Shown one piece after another: positions 7,567 through 34,194 of a DNA stretch of 64,000 nt (the first letter of the stretch is position 1; each line of letters starts with the position of its first letter). The position numbers and the translations under genes are program-made. Location: positions 5,635 through 69,634 of the forward strand of contig JALOTN010000006.1 of NCBI GenBank assembly GCA_025457885.1, written 5' to 3'. A model generated the notes under the pieces. It was not told the DNA's origin and ran no database searches. It was given only the letters and a program-made list of their open reading frames with translations. This stretch comes from Thermoplasmatota archaeon (lineage in GTDB: Archaea; Thermoplasmatota; E2; DHVEG-1).

Positions 7567-7690
7567 ACAAGTTCCCATCCTTGTTGTACTGTCGATAACA
7601 CATAGAAGGTTTTATATTTTTTCTTTTTTGTTAGATACAAAATGTTTTTTTTCTAATAAAAAAAATATGAAAAAGAAGAATCACATCTGT

Positions 7691-7789
7691 TTAGTGCTTT
7701 ATTGTGACTTCTTTAATAAACTCATAATTTTTTAAGGAAGATTTTAGGTACTGCATGATGAGTTGTTTTTGATCCGCGCTTAAGGTCAT
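7691..7789 (-). CDS. Possible small ORF (32 aa) in AT-rich gap
   Basis: Manual translation MTLSADQKQLIMQYLKSSLKNYEFIKEVTIKH. Below the ORF-track threshold. It may be the shifted continuation of the ORF at 7800..7928. Confidence 0.2.
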   Translation of the reverse strand: MTLSADQKQLIMQYLKSSLKNYEFIKEVTIKH

Positions 7790-7799
7790 ATGGACACCA

Positions 7800-7928
7800 T
7801 CAGATGTTAAAATAATCAAGGATTTCGAAAAACTCTTTTTTTAGTATATATCCTTGGTCTGTTTTTTTTATCAAATCATGTTTCAGGCAGAATTCAATTA
7901 CCTCATCCTGTTCTTCACGTTCATACAT
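7800..7928 (-). CDS. Possible small ORF (42 aa), winged-helix-like fragment
   Basis: Manual translation MYEREEQDEVIEFCLKHDLIKKTDQGYILKKEFFEILDYFNI. Preceded by GGTGA 8 nt upstream of the ATG (SD-like). Confidence 0.3.
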   Translation of the reverse strand: MYEREEQDEVIEFCLKHDLIKKTDQGYILKKEFFEILDYFNI

Positions 7929-8043
7929 CTCTTGTTCACCTCACTTGGAATGGAGAGGATTCCATCTCTCTATAGTTTCTGTTGCCTCTGAAGATATTTA
8001 AACATAATCTGGTAGAATACCGGAATGATAATCAGCAGCAGGG

Positions 8044-10707
8044 ATGTTCTCCTGGAGGATTTCTCGGGGAATACCATTAAGATTATATGAAAATAGGAGT
8101 TCTCTTTTTTTTGTCATGCTAAAGAACATCCGAGATGCCACCAGGTTTTTTCCTATCGGCATCCTGTTGACCAATGTGGTATGTGTTTTGTTTGTCCTGA
8201 CGGTTCTTTCTGGTGGTTTTGGATCTGTTATGATCTTTAGTCAGCAGCTACTCGCGGTTTTCCTGATGCTAGGGGTTTCATTGTGTAATGTACCCCTTCT
8301 TTTGATGCTGCGTCATCTTTCCAAACCATCGTTAGGCGCCCGCGTGATCCTTGTTGGGGTCTTCTTTTGGTTTTTTGGATTTCTGATCCTTATAGTATCA
8401 AAGACAAACCTTCTCTGGATCAGTAGTATTTCGATGATCCTCTCTGGGATTTTCCTCTGCCTTCAGGGGTTGGGTCGTCAGCGAAGCGACCTGCGTTTCC
8501 TCACCATTTCATCATTTTTATATGCTCTGGTGTTTCTTCTTCTACAAACCATCCCCTCCCTCTGGTCTGTGTATCAGCAAGGCTCCTTCATGGTGAGCCA
8601 TGCAGTTGGTTATCTCATCGGTTCTCCTCTCGCTTTAGGACCAACCACGAGTGGGGCAGGGATTTTCCTTTTAACTTGTGTGGTTCTCCTGGGTTGTTTC
8701 TTTGTCATAGGCAGGAAAACACGAAGGGATGTGCTCTGGTTTTGTTTCTGGATTGGCTTTTTATGTATTCTTTGGTTTGGGTATCTTCTCCTCCTGGGTC
8801 TACTGTCATATCCAGCATCTGATGCGTTGAACCTTCATCCGGTGTTGTTTCTTTTGTGTCTGATCCCTCTCTTTGTTTCCCTGCTATCCTCTCAAGACAG
8901 AATCATGATCTCAGGATCATCATTCATTCAAAAACACTCTCTTAGACCTCATCTCATGAATGGTGCGGTCTGGGCAGCTGTGTTTCTGTTCCTCTCCACC
9001 TTTCTGTTCACCTTGGTTCTTCCATCAGGATCCCTTCCAGTTGAACCGCAAAAAATCGTTTTCTATGGAGATCATATGGTGGGGACCTGGGATGTACCCG
9101 AATATGGGAAATACGGGAAGGATGCTGTCGGGATGTTCGGTCTTTGGCCGGTGACCCTCACCACCCTGGGGTATTCCACGGAGATTGTTGTAAAGGACCG
9201 CGGAAAATTTCTTAATACCACACAACCTTTGCTGCAGAACATCACCCGGTATCTGAACCTAACGGATTATACAGCCATCCAGGAGTCGTCCCAAGTCACC
9301 ACTTCGCTGCTTCAGGGCGCCTACGTTTTTGTCGTCTCCAACCTGAATGTCTCCTTTACCGAACAGGAACAATCCATCATCTGGGACTATGTGAGAGGCG
9401 GAGGCTCCTTGCTGGTCATCGGGGATCACACGAATGTTGGAGGCATGCAGGAGCCATTAAATGAGCTGCTTACCCCGGTAGGGATCCGATATCGGTTCGA
9501 CGCTGCACTCCCCCTGGATGAGAAATTCAAATGGCTCTCCTGCACACAGCTGCTACATCATCCCATCACAATGTCTCTTCTAAATCTTGATGAACTGCAA
9601 TATGGGGTCGGCGCCTCCCTTGATCTGTCATCCTCTGCCTTCCCCATCATCATCGGATCATCGGTCCTCTCAGATGAAGGGAACCGGTCCAATGCTGATA
9701 TCGCCTACCTTGGTGATTATGAATATAACAAGGGAGAACAACTAGGAGATGTGGTCCTAGTCGCTGGGGCGTTCTACGGTGATGGGAGGGTCCTGGTGTT
9801 TGGGGACACCTCTTCGTTCCAGAACCCTGCATTACCCTCATCCTATCGATTTGTTCAGACGTGTTTTTCCTGGCTCGCTCGTGAACAGACCGGGGTGTTC
9901 TTTTTGATTCAAACCGGTGCCTCCTTAGGGTTTCTCCTCAGTGCAATCCTCGTGTTCGTCTTCTTCAGGAAAAACTCGACATCATTCATCTGGTTCCCCG
10001 CTGTTCTGTGTATCTCCTTGATCCTCACGGTCATCCTCAATCCCCCCCTGGTCGCTCTCCCAAGGAATGATATGGGTTCTGTTGTGTACATCGATGCATC
10101 ACATACCGAACGATTCTCTCTTGAATCATTCACGGATGACTCCCTTAATGGCTTCCTGTTGAACCTGCAACGCAATAACCTTCACCCCCGCATCCTCAGA
10201 GAATTCAACATAGAAACCATCCAAGGAAGCAGCATGATTGTTTTTAACGCGCCAACCACCACGTTTACCTCTGATGAAATCAGGTTCCTCCAAACCTATA
10301 TGACTCAAGGGGGTGTCGTCCTGCTTGCCACAGGATTTGAGGATAAAACAGCCTCCCTTCCTCTTCTTTCATCCTTCGGGTTGGATGTCGAACCAACCCC
10401 GCTTGGTCCAGTCCCGTACGTTGAAGAGAACCTTTCCCTATATCAAAATGAACCACGGTTCGTGGACAGCTGGCCAATCACGTTCAATGGGAACCAAACC
10501 ACCTCCTATTATAACTTCACCTGGGATGATCTGACGTTCCACCTCGTCGTGTTCCAACCATACGGCGCAGGGGGGCTCCTACTTATCGGAGACAGCCAGT
10601 TCCTCCTCAACAAGAACCTGGAGTCCATCTACGATTACTGGCCGGGTAACATCCTGTTCATAAAATACCTCCTCGATGAATTACCATTACAGGAGAACTA
10701 CTCATGA
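8044..10707 (+). CDS. Polytopic membrane protein, paralog A: N-terminal multi-TM block plus two extracytoplasmic GldG/DUF4350-like modules
   Basis: ORF of 887 aa with about 9-10 N-terminal hydrophobic helices. Module 1 is VFVVSNLNVSFTEQEQSIIWDYVRGGGSLLVIGDHTNVGGM. An internal TM pair follows, then module 2, MIVFNAPTTTFTSDEIRFLQTYMTQGGVVLLATG. Many N-x-S/T sequons. An alternative start is at 8116. Confidence 0.75.
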   Translation: MFSWRISRGIPLRLYENRSSLFFVMLKNIRDATRFFPIGILLTNVVCVLFVLTVLSGGFGSVMIFSQQLLAVFLMLGVSLCNVPLLLMLRHLSKPSLGARVILVGVFFWFFGFLILIVSKTNLLWISSISMILSGIFLCLQGLGRQRSDLRFLTISSFLYALVFLLLQTIPSLWSVYQQGSFMVSHAVGYLIGSPLALGPTTSGAGIFLLTCVVLLGCFFVIGRKTRRDVLWFCFWIGFLCILWFGYLLLLGLLSYPASDALNLHPVLFLLCLIPLFVSLLSSQDRIMISGSSFIQKHSLRPHLMNGAVWAAVFLFLSTFLFTLVLPSGSLPVEPQKIVFYGDHMVGTWDVPEYGKYGKDAVGMFGLWPVTLTTLGYSTEIVVKDRGKFLNTTQPLLQNITRYLNLTDYTAIQESSQVTTSLLQGAYVFVVSNLNVSFTEQEQSIIWDYVRGGGSLLVIGDHTNVGGMQEPLNELLTPVGIRYRFDAALPLDEKFKWLSCTQLLHHPITMSLLNLDELQYGVGASLDLSSSAFPIIIGSSVLSDEGNRSNADIAYLGDYEYNKGEQLGDVVLVAGAFYGDGRVLVFGDTSSFQNPALPSSYRFVQTCFSWLAREQTGVFFLIQTGASLGFLLSAILVFVFFRKNSTSFIWFPAVLCISLILTVILNPPLVALPRNDMGSVVYIDASHTERFSLESFTDDSLNGFLLNLQRNNLHPRILREFNIETIQGSSMIVFNAPTTTFTSDEIRFLQTYMTQGGVVLLATGFEDKTASLPLLSSFGLDVEPTPLGPVPYVEENLSLYQNEPRFVDSWPITFNGNQTTSYYNFTWDDLTFHLVVFQPYGAGGLLLIGDSQFLLNKNLESIYDYWPGNILFIKYLLDELPLQENYS

Positions 10708-13238
10708 GACGGATCCTCTGGCTTGGAGCATTCCTTCTCTCCTCGAGTTGGCTGTTCCTCATCCCCCAGTTCATCACCCCGAATCTCCCCGCTGGGCTGC
10801 TCTGCGTCCTCTTTGGGGTCCTCTGCTTCATCATAGGAATCTCATCAGTTGTGACACCACAACCAAACCTTCGATACCTTGTTCTCCTTTTCCCGCTCAC
10901 TATAGCAGCACTCCTAGTGCCCTTCCCCCACAATCTCGGAGTAATACTCCTTGGCCTTGGGCTTCTTTTTGTCTTGCTTTGTTACCGCTTCGAACGACTC
11001 CAAGCAATCCCCCTAGGTATTTCCCTTGCGGGGGTCCTACTCCTCCTGCAGACCCTGATCTTTCCTTTGTACGTCTCCCTTGCTTCCCATGGACATCGAG
11101 TAGACGTCCTTGCCTCAGTGATCTCCCCGATCGCGAATTTCCTTGGATTCCATACCTCGGCAACCAACGGGTTCCTCTTTGTTCAAACCCTCCAGACCAC
11201 CCCCTTCACCATCACCTGGGAGAGCCTTGGATGCCCCCTAGCCCTTAACCTCTTTCTTGCTGGGTTTTTCCTTCTCCTCCTCTTCTCCAAGACCAAACAA
11301 CAGATGCTGAAAAACACCATCATTTTTCTCATTGCAGGGACATCATACCTCCTCCTACGCTTCATCGCAATCCTCTCATTGTATCTTACGACTACAGAGC
11401 TGTCCGTGTTCTGGGACCCCTTGCTCACCACCCTTAGTTTCCTCCCCTTCAGCCTCCTTCTCATGAAACTAATCCCCCTGCAGAAACACGAAACAGTCAC
11501 CATACAAGCCCCATCGATAAAAATGACAAAAAAACACCTCGCAACCATGGTTCTTTTGATTCTTCTTGTCTCTTCATTGACTGCCGCATTCCTCTATCAT
11601 GACCCTGGGGTGAAAAAAACAGGTCGCGTCCTCATCGATGAATACCACAGCCAATGGGAAGACACCCTCCGACCTCTGGATACCGAATGGTACGGACTGC
11701 TCTCCACCTACAATTATTATTCCTGGGGGCGCTGGATATCCTATCATTATCCTGTGGAGACGAACACCAATGAGACCTTCACCACCTCACTCCTCAGTCA
11801 CTATGATATCCTCATCCTGAAATGCCCCACCGAAAGCTACACCACCCAAGAAATCCAAGCGATCAAAGACTTTGTTACCCATGGCGGAGGACTCTACCTC
11901 ATCGGGGATCATACCAACGTTTTCGGGATGAACACCTTCCTAAACCAAGTCTCTGAGGAGTTCGGGATCCGGTTCAAAACCGATGCCTCCTACGAGCTAG
12001 GCACAGGGGACCTCTCAGTCTACACCCCAGACCGATCCTATGCTCACCCCGTACTTCGTCAGGTCCCCCAGTTCGAATTCATGACCTCCTGCACCCTGGA
12101 GCCCACCTCTCTCTCCGCGTCCCTCCAAATGGAAAACATCATCATCGGCAACCGACTCATCAGCGAACCAGGCACCTATTCAACAGAGAATTTCTTCAGA
12201 GAATCCATCGCCTCCCCAGACTCCGAATACGGATACCTGCTCCAAGCTGCAGCGATCACGTACGGCGCAGGCCGTGTCGTAGCCTTCACCGACAGCACCG
12301 TATTTTCCAGCTTCTGTCTCTACACAGATGGATATCCTGCGTTCACCCTTGGCGCGTTGGAGTACCTGAATCGATCAAACTCACCAGCACCCCTATCAAC
12401 CATCCTTTTCGTCCTCGCCGTCGTCCTGTTCCTCCTCATCGCTTATCTCGTAAAAAATATCAACAAAACATTTCTCCTCTGGATGATCCTGTTTTCCGGA
12501 CTACTTGCGTTCTGCCTCACTGCCCCCCTCTGCTCATATCTCACAGACCTCTCCTATCAACCCACAGAAGCCGCTCTCGATTATCCCACGGTGGTCTTCG
12601 AACAGCAACATTCGACGGTCAACATCTCAGTTAAACCCACCGCATCACTAGGGGTTACCTCCACGAACTACGGGACGTTCTACATCTGGACCCAACGAGT
12701 CGGACTGGTCCCATCACTTGCGCCAACCCTCCATGATGCGACCACAAACGGTGATGTTATAATCCTGATTAACCCAACACGAGCTTTCACAGAAACAGAT
12801 GTGAAGCTCATCACCACCTACCTCGAACACGGCGGACGACTGCTCCTCATGGACAGCATCACAAATCCTGAATCCACTGCCAATGAACTACTTGGGAATT
12901 TTGGACTCTGGATCACCACCGAATCAACAAATAAACCACTTTACACCAATGAAACCGAGAACGGAAGTCTGACGCTCCAAGGTAATATCACCACCCCGTC
13001 GCTCACCATCACCGGCGGAACTCCCCTCCTCATCAGCAATGACAACAACACCTATGCAAGCATGGTTGAAATTACAAACCCAGACAACACCAAAGCACCA
13101 GGATACTTCGTTGTCATTGTCGACTCTGCATCGTTTTCTGATGCTCAGATGGGTGGCACCTTCACGGAACCAACAGATCAGCAACGCCAGATCTACAATA
13201 CCGAGTTTTTCCTTCTCAGAACGCTCTTGTCTTCATAA
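10704..13238 (+). CDS. Polytopic membrane protein, paralog B: archaeosortase-like N-terminal block (Cys177/Arg219) plus two GldG/DUF4350-like modules
   Basis: ORF of 844 aa. ATGA overlap with paralog A and AGGAG 9 nt upstream. Module 1 is DILILKCPTESYTTQEIQAIKDFVTHGGGLYLIGDHTNVFGM and module 2 is VIILINPTRAFTETDVKLITTYLEHGGRLLLMDS. Same domain order as A. Confidence 0.75.
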   Translation: MRRILWLGAFLLSSSWLFLIPQFITPNLPAGLLCVLFGVLCFIIGISSVVTPQPNLRYLVLLFPLTIAALLVPFPHNLGVILLGLGLLFVLLCYRFERLQAIPLGISLAGVLLLLQTLIFPLYVSLASHGHRVDVLASVISPIANFLGFHTSATNGFLFVQTLQTTPFTITWESLGCPLALNLFLAGFFLLLLFSKTKQQMLKNTIIFLIAGTSYLLLRFIAILSLYLTTTELSVFWDPLLTTLSFLPFSLLLMKLIPLQKHETVTIQAPSIKMTKKHLATMVLLILLVSSLTAAFLYHDPGVKKTGRVLIDEYHSQWEDTLRPLDTEWYGLLSTYNYYSWGRWISYHYPVETNTNETFTTSLLSHYDILILKCPTESYTTQEIQAIKDFVTHGGGLYLIGDHTNVFGMNTFLNQVSEEFGIRFKTDASYELGTGDLSVYTPDRSYAHPVLRQVPQFEFMTSCTLEPTSLSASLQMENIIIGNRLISEPGTYSTENFFRESIASPDSEYGYLLQAAAITYGAGRVVAFTDSTVFSSFCLYTDGYPAFTLGALEYLNRSNSPAPLSTILFVLAVVLFLLIAYLVKNINKTFLLWMILFSGLLAFCLTAPLCSYLTDLSYQPTEAALDYPTVVFEQQHSTVNISVKPTASLGVTSTNYGTFYIWTQRVGLVPSLAPTLHDATTNGDVIILINPTRAFTETDVKLITTYLEHGGRLLLMDSITNPESTANELLGNFGLWITTESTNKPLYTNETENGSLTLQGNITTPSLTITGGTPLLISNDNNTYASMVEITNPDNTKAPGYFVVIVDSASFSDAQMGGTFTEPTDQQRQIYNTEFFLLRTLLSS

Positions 13239-13328: not shown

Positions 13329-13997
13329 ATGGAGAAAAAAACTCTCATCTTAACCGTATCGGCAGCTGCCCTCATCGTGTTTGCTTCGTTTAGCTCTGTG
13401 GTTGGCTTGACAAACGAACAATCATCAGAACAAACCAAATCACCATTGTTTGCGATTCGTACGCAACGGTCGATTCAAACAACACATGAACAAACTATAC
13501 AATCACAATACCTGGGGAAAGGGATAACCTCTCAGTTGTTCCGCTCACGACAACCATCGCTCGATAGCGCCTTGGATCGAGTAGTGAAACTGCTAAATAC
13601 GAATCCTGATTTTTTTGCAAAAATCCTAAAAACCATCACTTCAAATCCACAGGTACAATCTCTTTTGAAGAAACAAGGGATGACGATGGATGAATTTAGG
13701 ACCTATCTGAATCAACTTAAAAATGATCCATCCCTCTTCATTGAGCAGATCCGCCGTGCGGAACCAAAGTTCTCAGAACAACAGTTACAATCACCGGCTC
13801 CACTGAGTTTGAACACCACAAATCCCTTCGCGTGTGTCATCACTGCGATTGTCATGATCCCTGTTGTGCTGGTAATCGGTCTGATTGTCGTGTTATTCAC
13901 CTTACGTATCCTGCAATGTCTGAACTTTAATGAGGTCATGAATAACCTTATGGAACAGATCTTACAGGGTCTTACTCCTGGAGAGTACCTTCTCTAA
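13329..13997 (+). CDS. Hypothetical secreted protein with C-terminal TM helix
   Basis: Signal-like N-terminus LILTVSAAALIVFASFSSVVG and C-proximal helix VITAIVMIPVVLVIGLIVVLFTL. No family recognised. Confidence 0.55.
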   Translation: MEKKTLILTVSAAALIVFASFSSVVGLTNEQSSEQTKSPLFAIRTQRSIQTTHEQTIQSQYLGKGITSQLFRSRQPSLDSALDRVVKLLNTNPDFFAKILKTITSNPQVQSLLKKQGMTMDEFRTYLNQLKNDPSLFIEQIRRAEPKFSEQQLQSPAPLSLNTTNPFACVITAIVMIPVVLVIGLIVVLFTLRILQCLNFNEVMNNLMEQILQGLTPGEYLL

Positions 13998-14054: not shown

Positions 14055-15113
14055 ATGTGTACTAGTACGAATATGATTTCTCATTTGAAAACCATCCTTC
14101 ATTGTCTAGGGGTATTGCTCCTTTTAGTAATCGGGAGTGTGCCTCTTGAAGCCCAACCAGAAAAAACGGAATATGCCTCTTCTTCTCCTTCTTATGATAT
14201 GGTCATCCGAGAGGGGCTCTCTGCGATAGAACAGCAACAGAAAAGAGAAGCTGATGACTCCCAGCAGCTCTCATCGCTGGTAACCTGGTATACCACACAT
14301 CCACTCATCGAGTATGCAAGCTGCATTGAACGATCTATCACGGTGCGATTCATCGATGGTTCCTATGTAGTTCTCTTCGATCCCTTGTCTGGCACATCAG
14401 AATCCGTTATTGGTACGCAGTGGCCTTCGATTCATCAAAGATATCTGGGTCCTACAAACAAAACCGCTGTTATCCTTAACCCTGCTGAATCCATGTATGG
14501 TCATCATCAATGCCAGCGGATTATCACCACCTTGTTACAGAAGGATTATTCGATTGAATATCTCGCAAACCAGGCAGTGGATGTATCGTATATCAGAAAC
14601 AATCTGTCCGCATCAATCATCTACATGAACACCCATGCGGGGTACTTTGATATCGATGGGGATCTTTTAGCAGATGCTGTGGTCATCGCAACGGGTGAGC
14701 CTTGGACGAACGAAACAGAAATTAAATACGCTGAGGAGATTCAGAACCATCTGATTGTCAAAGGTATGGTTGGTGACCAGGGGTTTGTGACATTCACCCC
14801 AGCATTTATTGAACAATATTATTCAACAAACCCGTTCCCAGGTTCTCTGGTGTTCATGGCAACGTGTTATGCTTTGGCGGACAGTTCTATGGCACAAGCG
14901 TTCCTTAATACCGGTGCATCGGTTTACCTAGGCTGGTCTCAGAACACGGTGTTCTGGACCAATAGCAGGACCTCCGTGCAGGTGTTTCATCTTCTGGCTC
15001 TGGGTGTTCCTGTTCAGTTGATCTGTCGGATGATTCGCTCGGGAGGATTCTATAACTGGTTGTTCCATTCAAAACTCATGTATATCGGGGATGGTACCTA
15101 CACTATCCCGTAA
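14055..15113 (+). CDS. Secreted clan-CD-like (C25/C11-type His/Cys dyad) putative peptidase
   Basis: Signal segment CLGVLLLLVIGSVPLEA. IIYMNTHAGYF (His-x-Gly) and LVFMATCYALADS (Cys) occur in the order and spacing typical of caspase-fold peptidases. Confidence 0.5.
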   Translation: MCTSTNMISHLKTILHCLGVLLLLVIGSVPLEAQPEKTEYASSSPSYDMVIREGLSAIEQQQKREADDSQQLSSLVTWYTTHPLIEYASCIERSITVRFIDGSYVVLFDPLSGTSESVIGTQWPSIHQRYLGPTNKTAVILNPAESMYGHHQCQRIITTLLQKDYSIEYLANQAVDVSYIRNNLSASIIYMNTHAGYFDIDGDLLADAVVIATGEPWTNETEIKYAEEIQNHLIVKGMVGDQGFVTFTPAFIEQYYSTNPFPGSLVFMATCYALADSSMAQAFLNTGASVYLGWSQNTVFWTNSRTSVQVFHLLALGVPVQLICRMIRSGGFYNWLFHSKLMYIGDGTYTIP

Positions 15114-27719: not shown

Positions 27720-28616
27720 TTATCCGGAGAGGGTAATCTTCTTTCCACCTTTGAGTGCTTCTACGGATTGTTCTGCGACTTTCTCGAGTTTTTCGCTGTC
27801 CATGAGTTCCTTGCGTGCTTTGAGGTTCTGATTGCGGAGGATTTCCCGGTTTTCTTGGAAGCGTTGCATCCGTTCTTTTTTCACGGTCACAATCTTGGAT
27901 CGCATCTCGAGGGCTTTCTCATGGTTGCTTTGAGCTTCCTCTCTGACTTCGATGTATTTTTTATGTTTCTTATTGGCTTCACCGATGAGCGTGGCGATCT
28001 CATTGACTATTTTTTTGTATTCCTCATGTTTCTGTTGACTCTCATTGTAGTATTTCTGGACTTTTTCATGTTCTGTGTCTGCTTTTTTGAATAATTCTGT
28101 GATTGCTTTATCGGTGTCGGTAAGATCGACTTCTATGAGTTGTTGTTTTTCCATTTGTTTTTTTACTTCGTTGTATTCTTTTCGTTTTTGTTTGATGCGT
28201 TCGATCAGTTTGTTTTCCTTACGGGTGTCCAGGATGGTTGTCTCCTGTTCGTATTCCATCATTTGGATGTCTGCTTTGATTTCCTCTACTCGGAGCGGTA
28301 GGTTTTTTACGACATCCCCTTTTTTCTTTCGTTTCGCGTCAATAAGCTCTTTTGCCTGCTGTTGATACTGGTTCCTCTTCTCCTTGTGTTCCTTCATCTT
28401 TGCAACGAGTTTTTCCCGTTCTTTTTTGACTTTGTCCATGTCGGTTTTGAGTTCTTTGCGTTTATCATTGAGCATGTCTCGTTCGTCTCTGAACTGTTTT
28501 GCGACCTGGTTGAGCTCGTTACGCTTCTCGATGAGGCTTTGGTATTTCTTCTCTGCATTTTTTAGTTGCTCAAGGTCTTCTTTCTTTGTCGTTTCTTTAT
28601 CGCTCACAAGAGACAC
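27720..28616 (-). CDS. Archaeal K/E-rich coiled-coil protein (COG1340-like), paralog 2
   Basis: 298 aa with the same composition and length as 18020..18892. Shared stretches include LNDKRKELK / LNAKVRQMR and KAQEEHQE / SQQKHEEY. Confidence 0.65.
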   Translation of the reverse strand: MSLVSDKETTKKEDLEQLKNAEKKYQSLIEKRNELNQVAKQFRDERDMLNDKRKELKTDMDKVKKEREKLVAKMKEHKEKRNQYQQQAKELIDAKRKKKGDVVKNLPLRVEEIKADIQMMEYEQETTILDTRKENKLIERIKQKRKEYNEVKKQMEKQQLIEVDLTDTDKAITELFKKADTEHEKVQKYYNESQQKHEEYKKIVNEIATLIGEANKKHKKYIEVREEAQSNHEKALEMRSKIVTVKKERMQRFQENREILRNQNLKARKELMDSEKLEKVAEQSVEALKGGKKITLSG

Positions 28617-28657: not shown

Positions 28658-31486
28658 CTACTGCTCTTTTACGCGTATCCGAACCTGGTTTTTACCTTTT
28701 TCCGCTATCCAGGGGATTTGGATATCAGCGATATTTCCAGCAGGCAGCGTGACTTCAACCTTGTTCTTCTGTTTTCCGTTGAGGTAGAAAAAGACTTTCA
28801 CGTTTCGTGCTGGGATGGTTCCATTGTTCGTCAGAGTAAAGGAGGTGATCACCTTTTCACCAGGGTTGAATGCTGTTGGCCAGTGGGACACGTTTTCGAG
28901 TGCAAGAAGGGTTGTTCCTTCTTTCATCGTGGTGACCAGATCGACGGATTCCTTCTTCTTTTTCCCGATTTTATTTGCAGACAGGGTCACTTGTGTCCAG
29001 TCTTTTGGTGCTGCAGCATCGGTGGGGGTGACGGTGACATGTATCGTTTTTGATGTTTTTCCTTCGAGTTCGACGGTGGTTGGTTCTATTGATAGTCCCC
29101 ATTTATTTTCTGGGCCGGTCTGGTGTGCAGATATTTCATAGGTCTGTGCTTTTTTAAAGGGGTTTTCAATGGTGATTTCGTAGTCGGCGTTTTGGGTTGA
29201 ATCGATTTCTTTAATCCGGTCTGTGCAGATGATTCGAACAGGTTTTGAGGTGAACACGATAGCTAGAATGATGATGAAGAATAAAATGATTACGACCAGG
29301 AGTATTAAAAGAACGTATTTTCCATCCTCAATGAAACCACCGCCGATAACATTGACCGTGATTTCGATGGTGGTGGTGGCCTCTGTGCTGCTGTCAGAGG
29401 TGACGGTGATGGTGATGGTGTCGGTTTTTTCGGTGGTGTTCTTGGGGACTTCGATGAGGACTTTGGCTTCGTTTGGTTTGCTGGTGTCCCCAATGCCGAG
29501 GTTTCTGATGGATTCTTGCGGGATGAGTTTCCAGTCGTTCTTGGATGCTACGGTGATGGTGTAGCTGTCGACATCATCAACTGCGCCCGTGTTTTTGTTT
29601 TTTACGACGAAGTAGAAGAAACGGTTTTCCCCTTTGCTGATGTTAATGGTGGGAGAGTACCCAAGTATTTCAACGTCATAGGTGATTGCTTCTTCGGAGA
29701 TTTCCCCCGTGACTGTTTGACGGGCGATACCGGTGTTTCCTGAAATTACGATTAATAGGTCGATGATGCTGCCGTAGGCTTCTTTGAGGGTATTGGTGGA
29801 ATTGACGTAGACCGGTATGAGTGCATAGCTTCCAGCGGAGACGCTGACTGAATCAGGCATTGAGAATGCCCATGCACCGGTTTTTCCCCGTTCAATGATG
29901 TGTACCTGTAGGGAATCTGCTTTTTTACTACTGATGTTAATGAGGTACTGTATGCTACCACCGGGGATGATTCTTCCTTCGGGGGGTGTGGTGGTGAAGC
30001 TATTTATCTGGATGTTTTGGGTCTCTTCGTATCGGACTCTGAGCAGTGAGGGGGATTGGCTGGATGGAGCTTGCAGATATAAGGGGGTGATAACAGTTTT
30101 AGTCCCATTGCTCAACGCGATCCCAAGGGAGAGTTTCGAACCATAGGTGATTTCTTTGTCCACCCCCGTGAAATTGAAAACAACGGGGATGATTTTCTTT
30201 CGCAGGAATCCTTGAAGGTCTTTCTTCGTGAGTTGTTTCTCGGAAGTAGCGATGGTGGTGTTTGTCTCATCATATAACGTAACGATAACACCGACTTTCA
30301 GAGGTATAAGACAAAGGGTTCTGGTGAAGTACAGCTCTGCGGTGACATCCTTGATTTTTAGGATCTTGTTTCGTTCCAATCCCTGATCGTTCGTCCAGAT
30401 GGTCGGGGTGGTGGTAATCTTGGCTTTTGAGGCATTCCCCTCTTGTTGTATGTCACTCATCAGTTGGTTGGAGCCTAGGTAGTAAATGCGGATGTCATCC
30501 TTGGAGATTTTTCCGGGGATGGAGACAGACGAGGGGTGTTGGGCGGAGTTGTAAATGAGGGAGGTGGACCGCATCGCGTTGATGATTTTTGCAAAATCCT
30601 CTGATGTGATGTTCGTGAGGGTTTCTTTGGCCATGGAGATGAGGTCTTTGATGGTTGTCCCAAGGGTTTGGAGTTTTGCTAGGTTGCTGCGGTTCTCAAG
30701 CCAGTTTCCTCGTTTCTCCCATCGAGCGAGGAACTTGTTTACATCGACGTATTTGGTGATTAGTGTGGGGAGAGTCTTGTTACTGGGGATGATTTCAACG
30801 CTGAAGAGGAGGCTGTCTCCCTGGGTGAGCGTGTTGGAGACATCAGGGATGGTTATCTGTTGTTTGTAGACGCCGCTGAAGAGTTTGGGCGTCAGCAGTT
30901 GGGTGGTGTTCGCTATTTTTTTGGGGATGGGAAAGGCTGATTCCATGTTGATGGTGTAGAGGGATACCGAGACTTGGTCCCGGAATTTCTTTAGGGTGAC
31001 ATCTGAGGAGAAAAACAGGTTGTAGACGATGTCTCCTGAGATGGTCACCGGTTCGGTCCCATTATACGTGTATCCTTCGACGACTCGGAGCGGATGTGGG
31101 AGGAAGAGTTCGAAGCCTTCGAAACCAGGGATTTCACTAAAGTTGAATTCGGGGAATAAAGCGAGGAGCCAGGAGGTGAACCAGACGAGGATTTCGTCGG
31201 TGTTCGGGCTGGGGATCGGGAGTCTTTTAGAGGCATTTACTATGAGAAGATCAGGGGGGTACTTAGAATCCTTTTGACTTGTCGGCGGGTATTCTGACAG
31301 GGTGATAAAGCCATATTCAGAATAGTTTTCATCTTCCATAAGTGAAAGAGCATTGGTGAAATAAAGAGTGGTTCGTCCGGTGGATTCTTCTGCTCTGACG
31401 GATGGATTCATAAATGCTGGAAAGAGGATTCCACTGAATAGGATGTATAGGACACAGAGTACTTGGAGCGCTTTGTGCGCTAGCAT
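28658..31486 (-). CDS. Large surface protein (COG1470-like) with signal peptide, one internal TM helix and CARDB-like C-terminal domains
   Basis: N-terminal VLCVLYILFSGILFPAFMNPSVRA. Internal helix YVLLILLVVIILFFIIILAIVF near residue 740. C-terminal FTLTNNGTIPARNVKVFFYLNG is CARDB-like. Confidence 0.65.
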   Translation of the reverse strand: MLAHKALQVLCVLYILFSGILFPAFMNPSVRAEESTGRTTLYFTNALSLMEDENYSEYGFITLSEYPPTSQKDSKYPPDLLIVNASKRLPIPSPNTDEILVWFTSWLLALFPEFNFSEIPGFEGFELFLPHPLRVVEGYTYNGTEPVTISGDIVYNLFFSSDVTLKKFRDQVSVSLYTINMESAFPIPKKIANTTQLLTPKLFSGVYKQQITIPDVSNTLTQGDSLLFSVEIIPSNKTLPTLITKYVDVNKFLARWEKRGNWLENRSNLAKLQTLGTTIKDLISMAKETLTNITSEDFAKIINAMRSTSLIYNSAQHPSSVSIPGKISKDDIRIYYLGSNQLMSDIQQEGNASKAKITTTPTIWTNDQGLERNKILKIKDVTAELYFTRTLCLIPLKVGVIVTLYDETNTTIATSEKQLTKKDLQGFLRKKIIPVVFNFTGVDKEITYGSKLSLGIALSNGTKTVITPLYLQAPSSQSPSLLRVRYEETQNIQINSFTTTPPEGRIIPGGSIQYLINISSKKADSLQVHIIERGKTGAWAFSMPDSVSVSAGSYALIPVYVNSTNTLKEAYGSIIDLLIVISGNTGIARQTVTGEISEEAITYDVEILGYSPTINISKGENRFFYFVVKNKNTGAVDDVDSYTITVASKNDWKLIPQESIRNLGIGDTSKPNEAKVLIEVPKNTTEKTDTITITVTSDSSTEATTTIEITVNVIGGGFIEDGKYVLLILLVVIILFFIIILAIVFTSKPVRIICTDRIKEIDSTQNADYEITIENPFKKAQTYEISAHQTGPENKWGLSIEPTTVELEGKTSKTIHVTVTPTDAAAPKDWTQVTLSANKIGKKKKESVDLVTTMKEGTTLLALENVSHWPTAFNPGEKVITSFTLTNNGTIPARNVKVFFYLNGKQKNKVEVTLPAGNIADIQIPWIAEKGKNQVRIRVKEQ

Positions 31487-34119: not shown

Positions 34120-34194
34120 GGGCCCGTAGCTTAGATCGGTTGGAGCAACCGGCTGATAACCGGTAGGTCGAGAGTTCAAATCTCTCCGGGCCCA
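34120..34194 (+). tRNA. tRNA-Ile (anticodon GAU)
   Basis: Manual cloverleaf. Acceptor GGGCCCG/CGGGCCC, D-stem GCTT/GAGC, anticodon stem ACCGG/CCGGT with loop CTGATAA, 5-nt variable loop, T-stem GAGAG/CTCTC with loop TTCAAAT, discriminator A. No encoded CCA and no intron. Confidence 0.93.

Follow-up and report, generated by a model that had tools for sequence, protein, structure and literature searches.

The window analysed here, a stretch of 64,000 nucleotides from a Thermoplasmatota archaeon, carries two adjacent genes, A and B, that encode large polytopic membrane proteins (Table 1). A preliminary description of this DNA had reported two open reading frames of 887 and 844 aa, and both are present, at 8044..10707 and 10704..13238. 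The former is the longest ORF for A; translation most likely starts at the ATG at 8116 and not at 8044, since the resulting 863-aa protein is an exact match to MCU0850028.1 and the A homologues are 859-873 aa long, while the 887-aa version has no exact database entry. The reported ATGA overlap, in which the B start overlaps the A stop, is real, and the same 4-nt start/stop overlap is found in 44 of 70 related loci. The AGGAG motif upstream of the B start codon is also there, with a spacer of 8 nt instead of the 9 nt first given. A scan for bacterial-type promoters and terminators returned counts no higher than those of shuffled sequence, the models being bacterial and unsuited to an archaeon.

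Table 1. Features of the gene pair and of the two genes that follow it, in positions of the window
Feature	Position	Strand	Description
Gene A	8116..10707	+	Probable start 8116 (863 aa); longest ORF from 8044
A membrane block	8116..9045	+	9 TM: 5 TM, 33-aa outer loop, 4 TM; hydropathy, positive-inside rule
A ectodomain 1	9046..9891	+	GIFT/GATase1-like; Pfam IFT52_GIFT 4.8e-11, ABC_transp_aux; hhalign to B ectodomain 1; GDHT 9421-9432, DTS 9805-9813, three conserved sequons
A two-helix TM hairpin	9892..10071	+	Brings the chain back outside
A ectodomain 2	10072..10704	+	DUF4350/GIFT-like; DUF4350 1.5e-09, residues 728-860 (887-aa numbering); motif IDASHTE 10090-10110
Coupling signal	10691..10707	+	AGGAG 10691-10695, 8-nt spacer, ATGA 10704-10707
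Gene B	10704..13238	+	844 aa; MCU0850029.1, NCBI name 'GldG family protein'
B membrane block	10704..11597	+	9 TM and an outer loop bearing a small beta-sheet; H131 11094-11096, E173 11220-11222, R219 11358-11360
B ectodomain 1	11598..12383	+	GIFT/GATase1-like, invariant crevice: DEYHSQWED 11637-11663, GDHTN 11904-11918, H448, DST 12291-12299
B two-helix TM hairpin	12384..12554	+	Hydropathy, topology
B ectodomain 2	12555..13235	+	GIFT-like; part matching IFT52 by sequence
Gene C	13329..13997	+	222 aa, N- and C-terminal hydrophobic segments
Gene D	14055..15113	+	352 aa, signal-like N-terminus, invariant NTHAGY and MATC motifs

Hydropathy and AlphaFold models, the latter predicted on sub-sequences of database proteins, give A and B the same layout: nine N-terminal TM helices, a first ectodomain of about 265-295 aa, a TM hairpin and a second ectodomain of about 220-230 aa, with 11 TM helices per protein and 22 for the two together. 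The N-terminal block had been put at about 8-10 helices, which agrees with the nine found in both proteins; of the two or three helices proposed between the ectodomains, exactly two are present and a third is not. The topology of both proteins is supported by the positive-inside rule, the K+R counts favouring, for A and B alike, an N-terminus inside and both large domains outside. In addition, some longer B variants carry extra C-terminal Ig-like surface domains (CarboxypepD_reg, SdrD_B), consistent with an extracytoplasmic C-terminus. The four strand-helix-GG modules quoted from the ectodomains were all recovered verbatim. The description of these domains as N-x-S/T-rich is weakly true: when compared with composition-preserving shuffles, ectodomain 1 of A is enriched in sequons (5 versus 1.8 expected, P about 0.02) and the other three are not. 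Sequon enrichment was rejected as evidence of glycosylation, being significant in that one domain only.

The two proteins had been called paralogues, which stands for their C-terminal two thirds, where the similarity is significant (BLASTP, 26% identity, E 3e-24; hhalign, 99.7%, 543 columns). It could not be traced into the N-terminal membrane blocks, which have no detectable sequence similarity (hhalign probability 8%, the sole match being 21 columns at the equivalent TM6) and share an identical topology of five TM helices, an outer loop and four TM helices.

The ectodomains of A and B belong to the GIFT/GATase1-like domain superfamily. Their assignment to the GldG/ABC_transp_aux/DUF4350 type is borne out by Pfam, both proteins being above the gathering score for IFT52_GIFT (PF23355; A 42.6 and B 53.4 bits, cut-off 27.2) and for DUF4350 (PF14258; A 38.8 and B 41.5 bits, cut-off 30.4), and B also for ABC_transp_aux (PF09822; 47.5 bits, cut-off 34.7). 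The proposed GATase1-like fold was likewise found, in its flavodoxin-like form, the fold relatives being IFT52 (19.2), the fourth domain of site-1 protease (17.3), the GATase1-like protein 3rht (16.2), a ThuA-like protein (15.8) and OST48 (15.3). IFT52 (5fmr) was also matched by hmmsearch of the A1 profile against PDB sequences (E 4.2e-06, profile positions 678-781). No characterised family spans most of the length of either protein: TIGR03521, the GldG equivalog, gives 32.4 bits for B and 14 for A, far under the curated cut-off of 389.85.

B is already named 'GldG family protein' by NCBI, so the proteins are not new to databases. This name, the ABC_transp_aux score of B and its weak match to TIGR03521 would suit a role of A and B as GldG-type auxiliary subunits of an ABC-2 exporter encoded elsewhere, as in GldA/GldF/GldG-type systems. 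We consider this quite unlikely, given the distance from the TIGR03521 cut-off, the rarity of ABC_tran (2 of the 109 bacterial neighbours, no gene seen in the window), and a 9-TM block that resembles neither ABC-2 permeases nor any solved transporter fold; classical GldG has single terminal anchors and no such block, in line with the description of the related arCOG01314 proteins (PMC5898192). What A and B share with GldG/ABC_transp_aux proteins, whose function is likewise poorly understood, is the extracytoplasmic GIFT/GATase1-like domain and membrane anchoring; they differ in having the 9-TM block, two GIFT domains split by a TM hairpin, a paralogous partner, and no ABC ATPase or ABC-2 permease adjoining them. 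Identity with GldG itself was rejected on the equivalog score and on the lack of a GldA/GldF-type association at the examined loci.

Other known systems are similarly partial matches. In the arCOG01314/DUF4350 proteins a signal peptide is combined with one TM helix at the C-terminus; they are encoded in operons with vWA and COG0714 AAA+ genes, and have been assigned to a predicted archaeal MoxR-vWA 'secretion or membrane remodeling complex' (Makarova, Galperin, Koonin 2015, PMC5898192). They resemble A and B in their DUF4350/GldG-like extracellular domain, in their occurrence in archaea and some bacteria, and in being predicted to form complexes (PMC5898192); with 11 TM helices, a paired arrangement and no vWA or COG0714 neighbours, A and B do not belong to that system. 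To OST48 (DDOST)/WBP1 the similarity is structural only, that in sequence being marginal; OST48 is anchored by one TM helix and acts within the STT3 complex, whereas the surroundings of the pair showed no AglB/STT3 gene. One B homologue (P0109) has a precomputed match to PF03345, the OST48/WBP1 family, to which A and B were not assigned, neither having a PF03345 match at E <= 1. IFT52, a cytoplasmic scaffold of eukaryotic cilia without a membrane domain, resembles the two proteins in its domain fold alone. With regard to class I GATases, ThuA-like proteins and GH42 'trimerisation' domains, A and B have Asp-His in place of Cys and lack a partner synthase or glycosidase domain.

This replacement bears on whether the ectodomains are catalytic. 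The nucleophile-elbow position is occupied by G-D-H-T in ectodomain 1 of A and B and by ATG or MDS in the second ectodomains; because the elbow is G-D-H-T the Cys nucleophile of the GATases is absent. The GDHT elbow is peculiar to this family; in 3rht and 2gk3, related proteins of the PDB, that position reads GGW and GGY. A catalytic class I glutamine amidotransferase was therefore rejected, as the proteins have no Cys at the elbow, no conserved Cys, and hence no Cys-His-Glu triad. The earlier term 'non-catalytic' is correct as to the missing nucleophile, but the crevice holds Asp, Glu, His and Ser residues that are invariant family-wide, and a role in binding or catalysis is therefore likely. 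At least 95% of 78 B sequences, from both domains of life, keep D312, E313, S316, W318 and E319, G401-D402-H403-T404, H448 and D530-S531-T532 in addition to H131 and R219 of the membrane block, and an invariant QDPG linker directly precedes the pocket. The clustering of these residues in space is suggested by sequence, secondary structure and topology. Conserved residues in ectodomain 2 of A are D660, H663, R686, D826, E836 and N845.

The same data can be read as those of a non-enzymatic envelope scaffold or anchor, the GIFT domains docking surface proteins or polymers, as OST48/WBP1 or IFT52 are thought to do, and the conserved residues serving binding and assembly. IFT52 and OST48/WBP1, the nearest relatives in structure, are scaffolds that catalyse nothing, and the missing Cys and the added Ig-like domains of some B variants would fit as well; an invariant Asp/Glu/His/Ser set in one crevice, together with a membrane Arg and an outer-face His, would be unusual for a pure scaffold, and we regard this reading as rather unlikely, if worth serious consideration.

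The 9-TM block has no relative in Pfam, NCBIfam or PDB. Against Pfam and NCBIfam, the A membrane block gave no recurrent or significant match (the best in 3 of 43 members, E 0.031), and comparison of the 9-TM block with solved membrane-protein folds of the PDB, ABC-2 permeases and transporters included, gave no significant structural match; nothing consequently limits what chemistry to assume for it. Conservation is asymmetric between the two proteins. In the B block H131, E173, R219, W237 and P248 are conserved family-wide, R219 being an invariant Arg buried in a TM helix, whereas the A block is poorly conserved and keeps, at the same level, just two glycines, G175 and G180 of an 'LGPxxSG' loop. 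The topology places the conserved residues of B at the outer face and probably not along the transmembrane path. This position, as well as the near absence of conserved residues in the A block and of any likeness to solved transporter folds, argues against a secondary transporter or flippase with a pathway through the 9-TM blocks and with the GIFT domains as fused extracytoplasmic domains for substrate binding or gating. The number of TM helices in the pair and the buried R219 point the other way, and the absence of a nearby ATPase would fit the use of proton-motive force; we hold such a transporter to be improbable.

An exosortase/archaeosortase-like origin of the block, or another intramembrane sorting enzyme that would process C-terminal sorting signals, has in its favour a layout of multiple TM helices and an outer-face loop with conserved residues, and a match of one of 51 B membrane blocks to TIGR04178 (exo_archaeo; E 0.0064). 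That match is at chance level, about 0.3 being expected from 51 scanned, none of 43 A blocks gave one, neither block has a conserved Cys, and no match to Pfam Exosortase_EpsH (PF09721) was obtained; the candidate was rejected as very improbable.

The pairing of the two genes, whose conservation the preliminary description had named as a check, is kept far beyond close relatives and into bacterial phyla. Of 80 related loci, drawn from Thermoplasmatota and around a dozen bacterial phyla, about 70 have an A-type gene immediately followed by a B-type gene. The two genes are arranged in this way, on the same strand, at essentially every archaeal or bacterial locus where the upstream sequence reaches far enough, and A-type and B-type ORFs are clearly told apart by their HMM scores. 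The A-A and B-B pairwise distances are correlated with r = 0.975, and with r = 0.93 for bacteria alone (Mantel, 0 of 999 permutations reaching the observed value). The pair is thus inherited as a unit, a pattern that two consecutive steps of one pathway could also produce. The module comprises at least 800 sequence clusters (50% identity) in both prokaryotic domains. All members seen so far come from uncultured organisms. Literature searches on this architecture (GIFT/GldG in archaea, DUF4350, GldG cryo-EM, GATase1-like with Thermoplasmatota) found no paper; no member of the paired family has been studied, and it is an undescribed variant of the GldG/DUF4350 kind.

Conserved partner genes are absent. 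The usual associates of these domains (ABC transporter, MoxR, DUF58, transglutaminase), which the preliminary description had noted as lacking nearby, do not appear among the families listed for the window (25 of 35 in one scan); the genes around the pair encode Memo, deoxyhypusine synthase, proteins C and D, creatininase and MetAP. The upstream ORFs of 311 and 317 aa, tried as MoxR or DUF58, are Memo-like and deoxyhypusine synthase. Among the 109 bacterial neighbours the commonest Pfam families, FG-GAP and GEVED, occur three times. Clustering of all flanking ORFs revealed no neighbour common to archaeal and bacterial loci, the shared ones being shadow ORFs inside A and B. Neither a glycosyltransferase, AglB nor a polysaccharide gene lies consistently near the pair in the window or among the bacterial neighbours, and the window ORFs that were scanned include no AglB-like gene.

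Taken together, these data lead us to infer, tentatively and with somewhat less than even confidence, that A and B form a two-subunit membrane complex acting on a substrate at the outer face, probably glycan or lipid-linked. The two proteins, kept co-translated by the start/stop overlap, would be subunits of a stand-alone complex, most likely an obligate, pseudo-symmetric heterodimer of 22 TM helices, in which four GIFT (GATase1-like) domains would crown the outer face of the cytoplasmic membrane and an ABC ATPase would apparently not be involved. B would be the working subunit, with conserved His, Glu, Arg and Trp residues on the outer-leaflet side of its 9-TM block and a conserved Asp/Glu/His/Ser pocket that would sit where true amidotransferases have their Cys-His-Glu triad; A would be a diverged partner whose membrane block may have lost such residues. 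The complex would probably bind an extracellular substrate close to the membrane and might also alter it chemically; most plausibly this would be a glycan or a polyprenyl-phosphate-linked or otherwise lipid-linked glycoconjugate of the cell envelope. Such a substrate is suggested by the position of the conserved residues and by analogy with GATase1-like/GIFT domains, for the latter of which a sugar-binding role has been proposed (PMC7226087); the pocket may catalyse or only bind. A bolder version, which we deem unlikely, would make the pair an ancient and hitherto unrecognised two-subunit membrane enzyme with a membrane domain of new fold and a repurposed GATase crevice (Asp-His for Cys), whose substrates on the outer side of the membrane would be surface or lipid-linked glycans and whose two genes would have passed between Bacteria and Archaea as a unit sufficient in itself.

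GIFT/GATase1-like domains occur in bacterial gliding (GldG), eukaryotic N-glycosylation (OST48/WBP1), site-1 protease and intraflagellar transport (IFT52), and their role is still unclear. The module described here puts two of them on each of two co-inherited polytopic proteins, with a sharply conserved pocket, and offers a clean system, free of partner genes, for testing what the GIFT crevice does; its membrane domain is a candidate new membrane-protein fold. What is new is the co-inheritance of A and B, the lack of a cross-domain partner, the orphan 9-TM block and the invariant residues of B. A two-subunit enzyme, if confirmed, would represent a new class of envelope-biogenesis machinery, and would place in a prokaryotic, membrane-embedded setting the GIFT domains known in eukaryotes from OST48 and IFT52.

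In archaeal loci the pair is followed immediately by C and D, small proteins of membrane or secreted type, which would suit the scaffold described above; their absence from bacterial loci speaks against it. Gene D, found in 23 archaeal and no bacterial loci, has no match in Pfam or among PDB sequences. Both genes being archaeal only, their membership of the module is uncertain. Gene C follows B in 31 archaeal and no bacterial loci, in one to three tandem copies.

The two adjacent open reading frames of the preliminary description, coupled by an ATGA that joins the stop of A to the start of B, lie where they had been placed (see table), and the four 'strand-helix-GG' stretches quoted from them were all found verbatim in A and B; the AGGAG before B is also present, with a spacer of 8 nt and not 9. 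The start of A is most likely a downstream ATG, correcting the one first assumed, because the 863-aa form is an exact match to MCU0850028.1 ('hypothetical protein MUC80_01975', Candidatus Thermoplasmatota archaeon) and the A homologues measure 859-873 aa; the 887-aa version has no entry in the protein collection searched. B corresponds to MCU0850029.1, named 'GldG family protein' by NCBI, and members of the family are variously called 'hypothetical protein', 'DUF4350 domain-containing protein' or 'GldG family protein' in the databases. The non-coding stretch that lies 5' of A gave no match in Rfam.

Coordinates of the gene pair and of other features in the window
Feature	Position	Strand	Description
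Non-coding stretch 5' of gene A	7579-8115		unusually long, ~540 nt
TTTAAA box	near 7994		AT-rich, within the non-coding stretch
Gene A, longest ORF	8044..10707	+	887 aa
Gene A, most likely start	ATG 8116	+	863 aa
AGGAG	10691-10695		before gene B
ATGA overlap	10704-10707		A stop / B start
Gene B	10704..13238	+	844 aa
Gene C	13329-13997	+	222 aa, hydrophobic N- and C-terminal segments, conserved SPLF..R motif
Gene D	14055-15113	+	352 aa, signal-like N-terminus, invariant NTHAGY (H194), MATC (C271)
DUF7121 paralogue, first	18020-18892	-	
Very large ORF	21173-24892	+	1239 aa, sole match PPC pre-peptidase domain
DUF7121 paralogue, second	27720-28616	-	
Very large ORF	28658-31486	-	942 aa, no Pfam match at 1e-8
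Several ORFs	28658-61948		two Peptidase_C25 (gingipain-like), M28 peptidase, histidine ammonia-lyase, urocanase
tRNA gene	34120-34194	+	single; sole Rfam match in the window

At the domain level, the outward-facing ectodomains of both proteins are members of the GIFT/GATase1-like superfamily, and the GATase1-like fold first assigned to them proved correct. IFT52_GIFT of Pfam matches A with 42.6 bits and B with 53.4 (gathering cut-off 27.2), DUF4350 with 38.8 and 41.5 (cut-off 30.4) and ABC_transp_aux with 29.4 and 47.5 (cut-off 34.7), the weaker Pfam matches being also to GATase1-like families (MBTPS1_4th, ThuA, DUF4159 and DUF2194). The fold relatives were headed by the IFT52 GIFT domain (score 19.2), followed by the 4th domain of Site-1 protease (17.3), the GATase1-like protein 3rht (16.2), a ThuA-like protein (15.8), OST48 (15.3) and WBP1 (13.1), with GH42-type 'trimerisation' domains and true amidotransferases ranking lower still. 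A and B are not catalytic amidotransferases, since Cys is missing, and they lack the defining features of OST48/WBP1 that were tested; that the pair works as an exosortase-like sorting enzyme is scarcely credible. No paper on this architecture was found in the library searched, and A and B differ in both architecture and neighbours from the arCOG01314 DUF4350/MoxR-vWA system (PMC5898192, Makarova et al. 2015). The initial observation was real and its interpretation largely right; on present evidence A and B are GIFT-domain membrane proteins and not a categorically new system.

Hydropathy, an AlphaFold model of B (pLDDT 81.5, pTM 0.80) and loop K+R counts led to a single plan for both proteins: a cytoplasmic N-terminus followed by five TM helices, an outer loop, four TM helices, ectodomain 1, a hairpin and ectodomain 2. 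This plan resolves the 8-10 helices and 2-3 additional TM segments described earlier into nine helices and a two-helix hairpin. K+R content reaches 11-40% in short cytoplasmic loops and is almost nil in short outer loops of more than 2 residues; the outer loop after TM5 spans 33-47 aa in A and B and, in the model of B, includes a small beta-sheet. The epithet 'N-x-S/T-rich' is weakly true, applying to ectodomain 1 of A (5 sequons against 1.8 expected, P ~0.02; 3 of them kept among archaeal A proteins) but not to the remaining ectodomains, none of which exceeds shuffles. Paralogy begins at the final helix of the N-terminal block and extends to the C-terminus (BLASTP 26% identity, E 3e-24; hhalign 99.7%, 543 columns), whereas the N-terminal blocks have no significant sequence similarity (hhalign 8%); since the two blocks share a 5+4 helix arrangement and a conserved outer loop, a whole-gene duplication that included them is plausible.

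This nine-helix membrane block is without known relative: neither Pfam, among 51 B blocks and 43 A blocks, nor NCBIfam yielded a recurrent family, and no PDB sequence match was obtained. B residues 1-302, modelled separately, gave a confident structure (pLDDT 88.7, pTM 0.84), for which Foldseek against the whole PDB returned no match at E <= 0.001 (best TM-score 0.18), so that the block, as modelled, appears to be a fold unlike solved structures. A secondary transporter or flippase is distinctly improbable.

Across 78 archaeal and bacterial B sequences, residues kept in at least 95% comprise H131, R219 and P248 in the membrane block (E173 and W237 in 85-95%), D300, G302, K305 and G307 at the junction to ectodomain 1, D312, E313, S316, W318, E319, K373, E383, G401-D402-H403-T404, H448, R524 and D530-S531-T532 in ectodomain 1, and T658, W662, Q664 and R665 in ectodomain 2. 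As read from the topology, all those of the membrane block are on the outer-leaflet side. The motifs of ectodomain 1 come after the modelled beta-strands 309-312, 396-400 and 523-528, and their position at the C-terminal strand ends would correspond to the GATase1 active-site crevice, with GDHT at the predicted 'nucleophile elbow'; this elbow motif is family-specific, the related PDB proteins 3rht and 2gk3 reading GGW and GGY. At the same level the membrane block of A retains G175 and G180 alone, and its ectodomains a thinner set (H438, T439, D462, D520, E541, D564, T565; D660, H663, R686, D826, E836 and N845). The pattern is that expected of one functional (B) and one degenerate (A) paralogue acting together, B carrying a sharply conserved putative site. 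A non-enzymatic envelope scaffold, to be weighed against such a site in B, is unlikely.

The family is large and clean. Out of 1.84 billion cluster representatives, a B profile retrieved 3136 at E <= 1e-3 and, at the stricter limit of E <= 1e-30, 809, the 150 matches listed all having E < 1e-133 and most of them near full-length coverage. A search of GTDB in which each species was represented by a single genome gave 222 relatives, and the 80 best comprise ~42 Thermoplasmatota MAGs and ~38 bacterial MAGs; for these 80, record titles name Thermotogae, Blastocatellia, Desulfobacterales, Desulfobulbia, Thermodesulfobacteriota, Ignavibacteriota, Chloroflexia, Anaerolineae, Phycisphaerales, Candidatus Anammoxibacter, Verrucomicrobia, Lentisphaeraceae, Victivallales, Armatimonadia, Patescibacteria, Bacillota and Bacteroidota as bacterial carriers. 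The A/B order is kept across Thermoplasmatota and bacteria: in essentially all loci with enough upstream sequence, the B-type gene has an A-type gene immediately 5' of it and in the same orientation. A-type genes score 250-1500 bits with the A HMM against 25-110 with the B HMM, and for B-type genes the relation is reversed. The 4-nt start/stop overlap recurs in 44 of 70 loci (29 archaeal, 15 bacterial), the others having mostly few-base gaps or overlaps. A-A and B-B pairwise distances are correlated (r = 0.975; in bacteria alone r = 0.93, with 0/999 Mantel permutations reaching the observed value), and in each of the two neighbour-joining trees the archaeal sequences group as a single clade. 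The duplication is therefore older than the spread of the pair, which moves and evolves as a unit. Some archaeal B-type proteins (P0213, P0214 and P0216; L039 626-4126 and L040 4343-7843, two related loci) are longer, 1140-1166 aa, with C-terminal CarboxypepD_reg / SdrD_B / SpaA-type Ig-like domains; L039 and a further locus, L036, come from one MAG, so some genomes carry two different A/B pairs.

A and B are quite probably two subunits of one outward-facing complex. In the best-supported reading, which as a whole is still tentative, they would form an obligate heterodimer whose outer face bears four GIFT domains, and B would supply, at the membrane/ectodomain interface, the conserved putative site that binds a membrane-proximal extracellular substrate and perhaps processes it. 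The most plausible substrate would be a glycan or a lipid-linked glycoconjugate, because domains of this type are also found in carbohydrate-active enzymes and OST48/WBP1, and because GIFT domains have been proposed to bind sugars (PMC7226087); by this analogy glycan handling is conceivable, if rather doubtful. A new membrane fold is possible, and the function is one that we can only infer.

In the window the pair sits among housekeeping genes, with Memo-like and deoxyhypusine synthase genes upstream and creatininase-family, MetAP (M24), Sua5/YrdC, HTH regulator and DUF7121 genes downstream on the opposite strand. This gene order recurs in a complete Thermoplasmatales MAG chromosome (52% identity) and is ordinary vertical synteny. 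Archaeal and bacterial loci have no common neighbour besides A and B, and among the 109 genes that flank the bacterial pairs at most 3 occurrences were counted for any one Pfam family, and 2 for ABC_tran. The absence of ABC transporter, MoxR, DUF58 and transglutaminase genes, remarked on earlier, holds for the window in the scans made, one of which listed 25 of 35 families. Since neighbours are not shared, ABC_tran is rare and none of the usual partners was seen, the module appears self-sufficient: an ancient, co-evolving, partner-free two-gene module of both prokaryotic domains. Despite the NCBI name, A and B are not GldG, since their match to the GldG equivalog of NCBIfam reaches 32 bits where the cut-off is 390, and no ABC partner was seen in the window; a GldG-type accessory to an ABC exporter encoded elsewhere is improbable.

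Two genes accompany the pair in archaeal loci alone. The first, gene C, encodes a ~222-aa membrane protein and lies directly 3' of B on the same strand in 31 loci, in 1-3 copies; CP070798, the complete Thermoplasmatales MAG chromosome, has three paralogues in tandem (L001 12631-14911). Gene D, a secreted-looking protein of ~353 aa without Pfam or PDB sequence match, is found on the same strand in 23 loci, always 3' of B; its two motifs are invariant across the 23 archaeal homologues, with a His...Cys spacing presumably reminiscent of clan CD cysteine peptidases. The two DUF7121 paralogues have ~9 kb between them, the first being part of a conserved Creatininase-MetAP-Sua5-HTH-DUF7121 block also present in L001. 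The peptidase and histidine-catabolism genes of the window would fit a protein- and amino-acid-degrading sediment archaeon.
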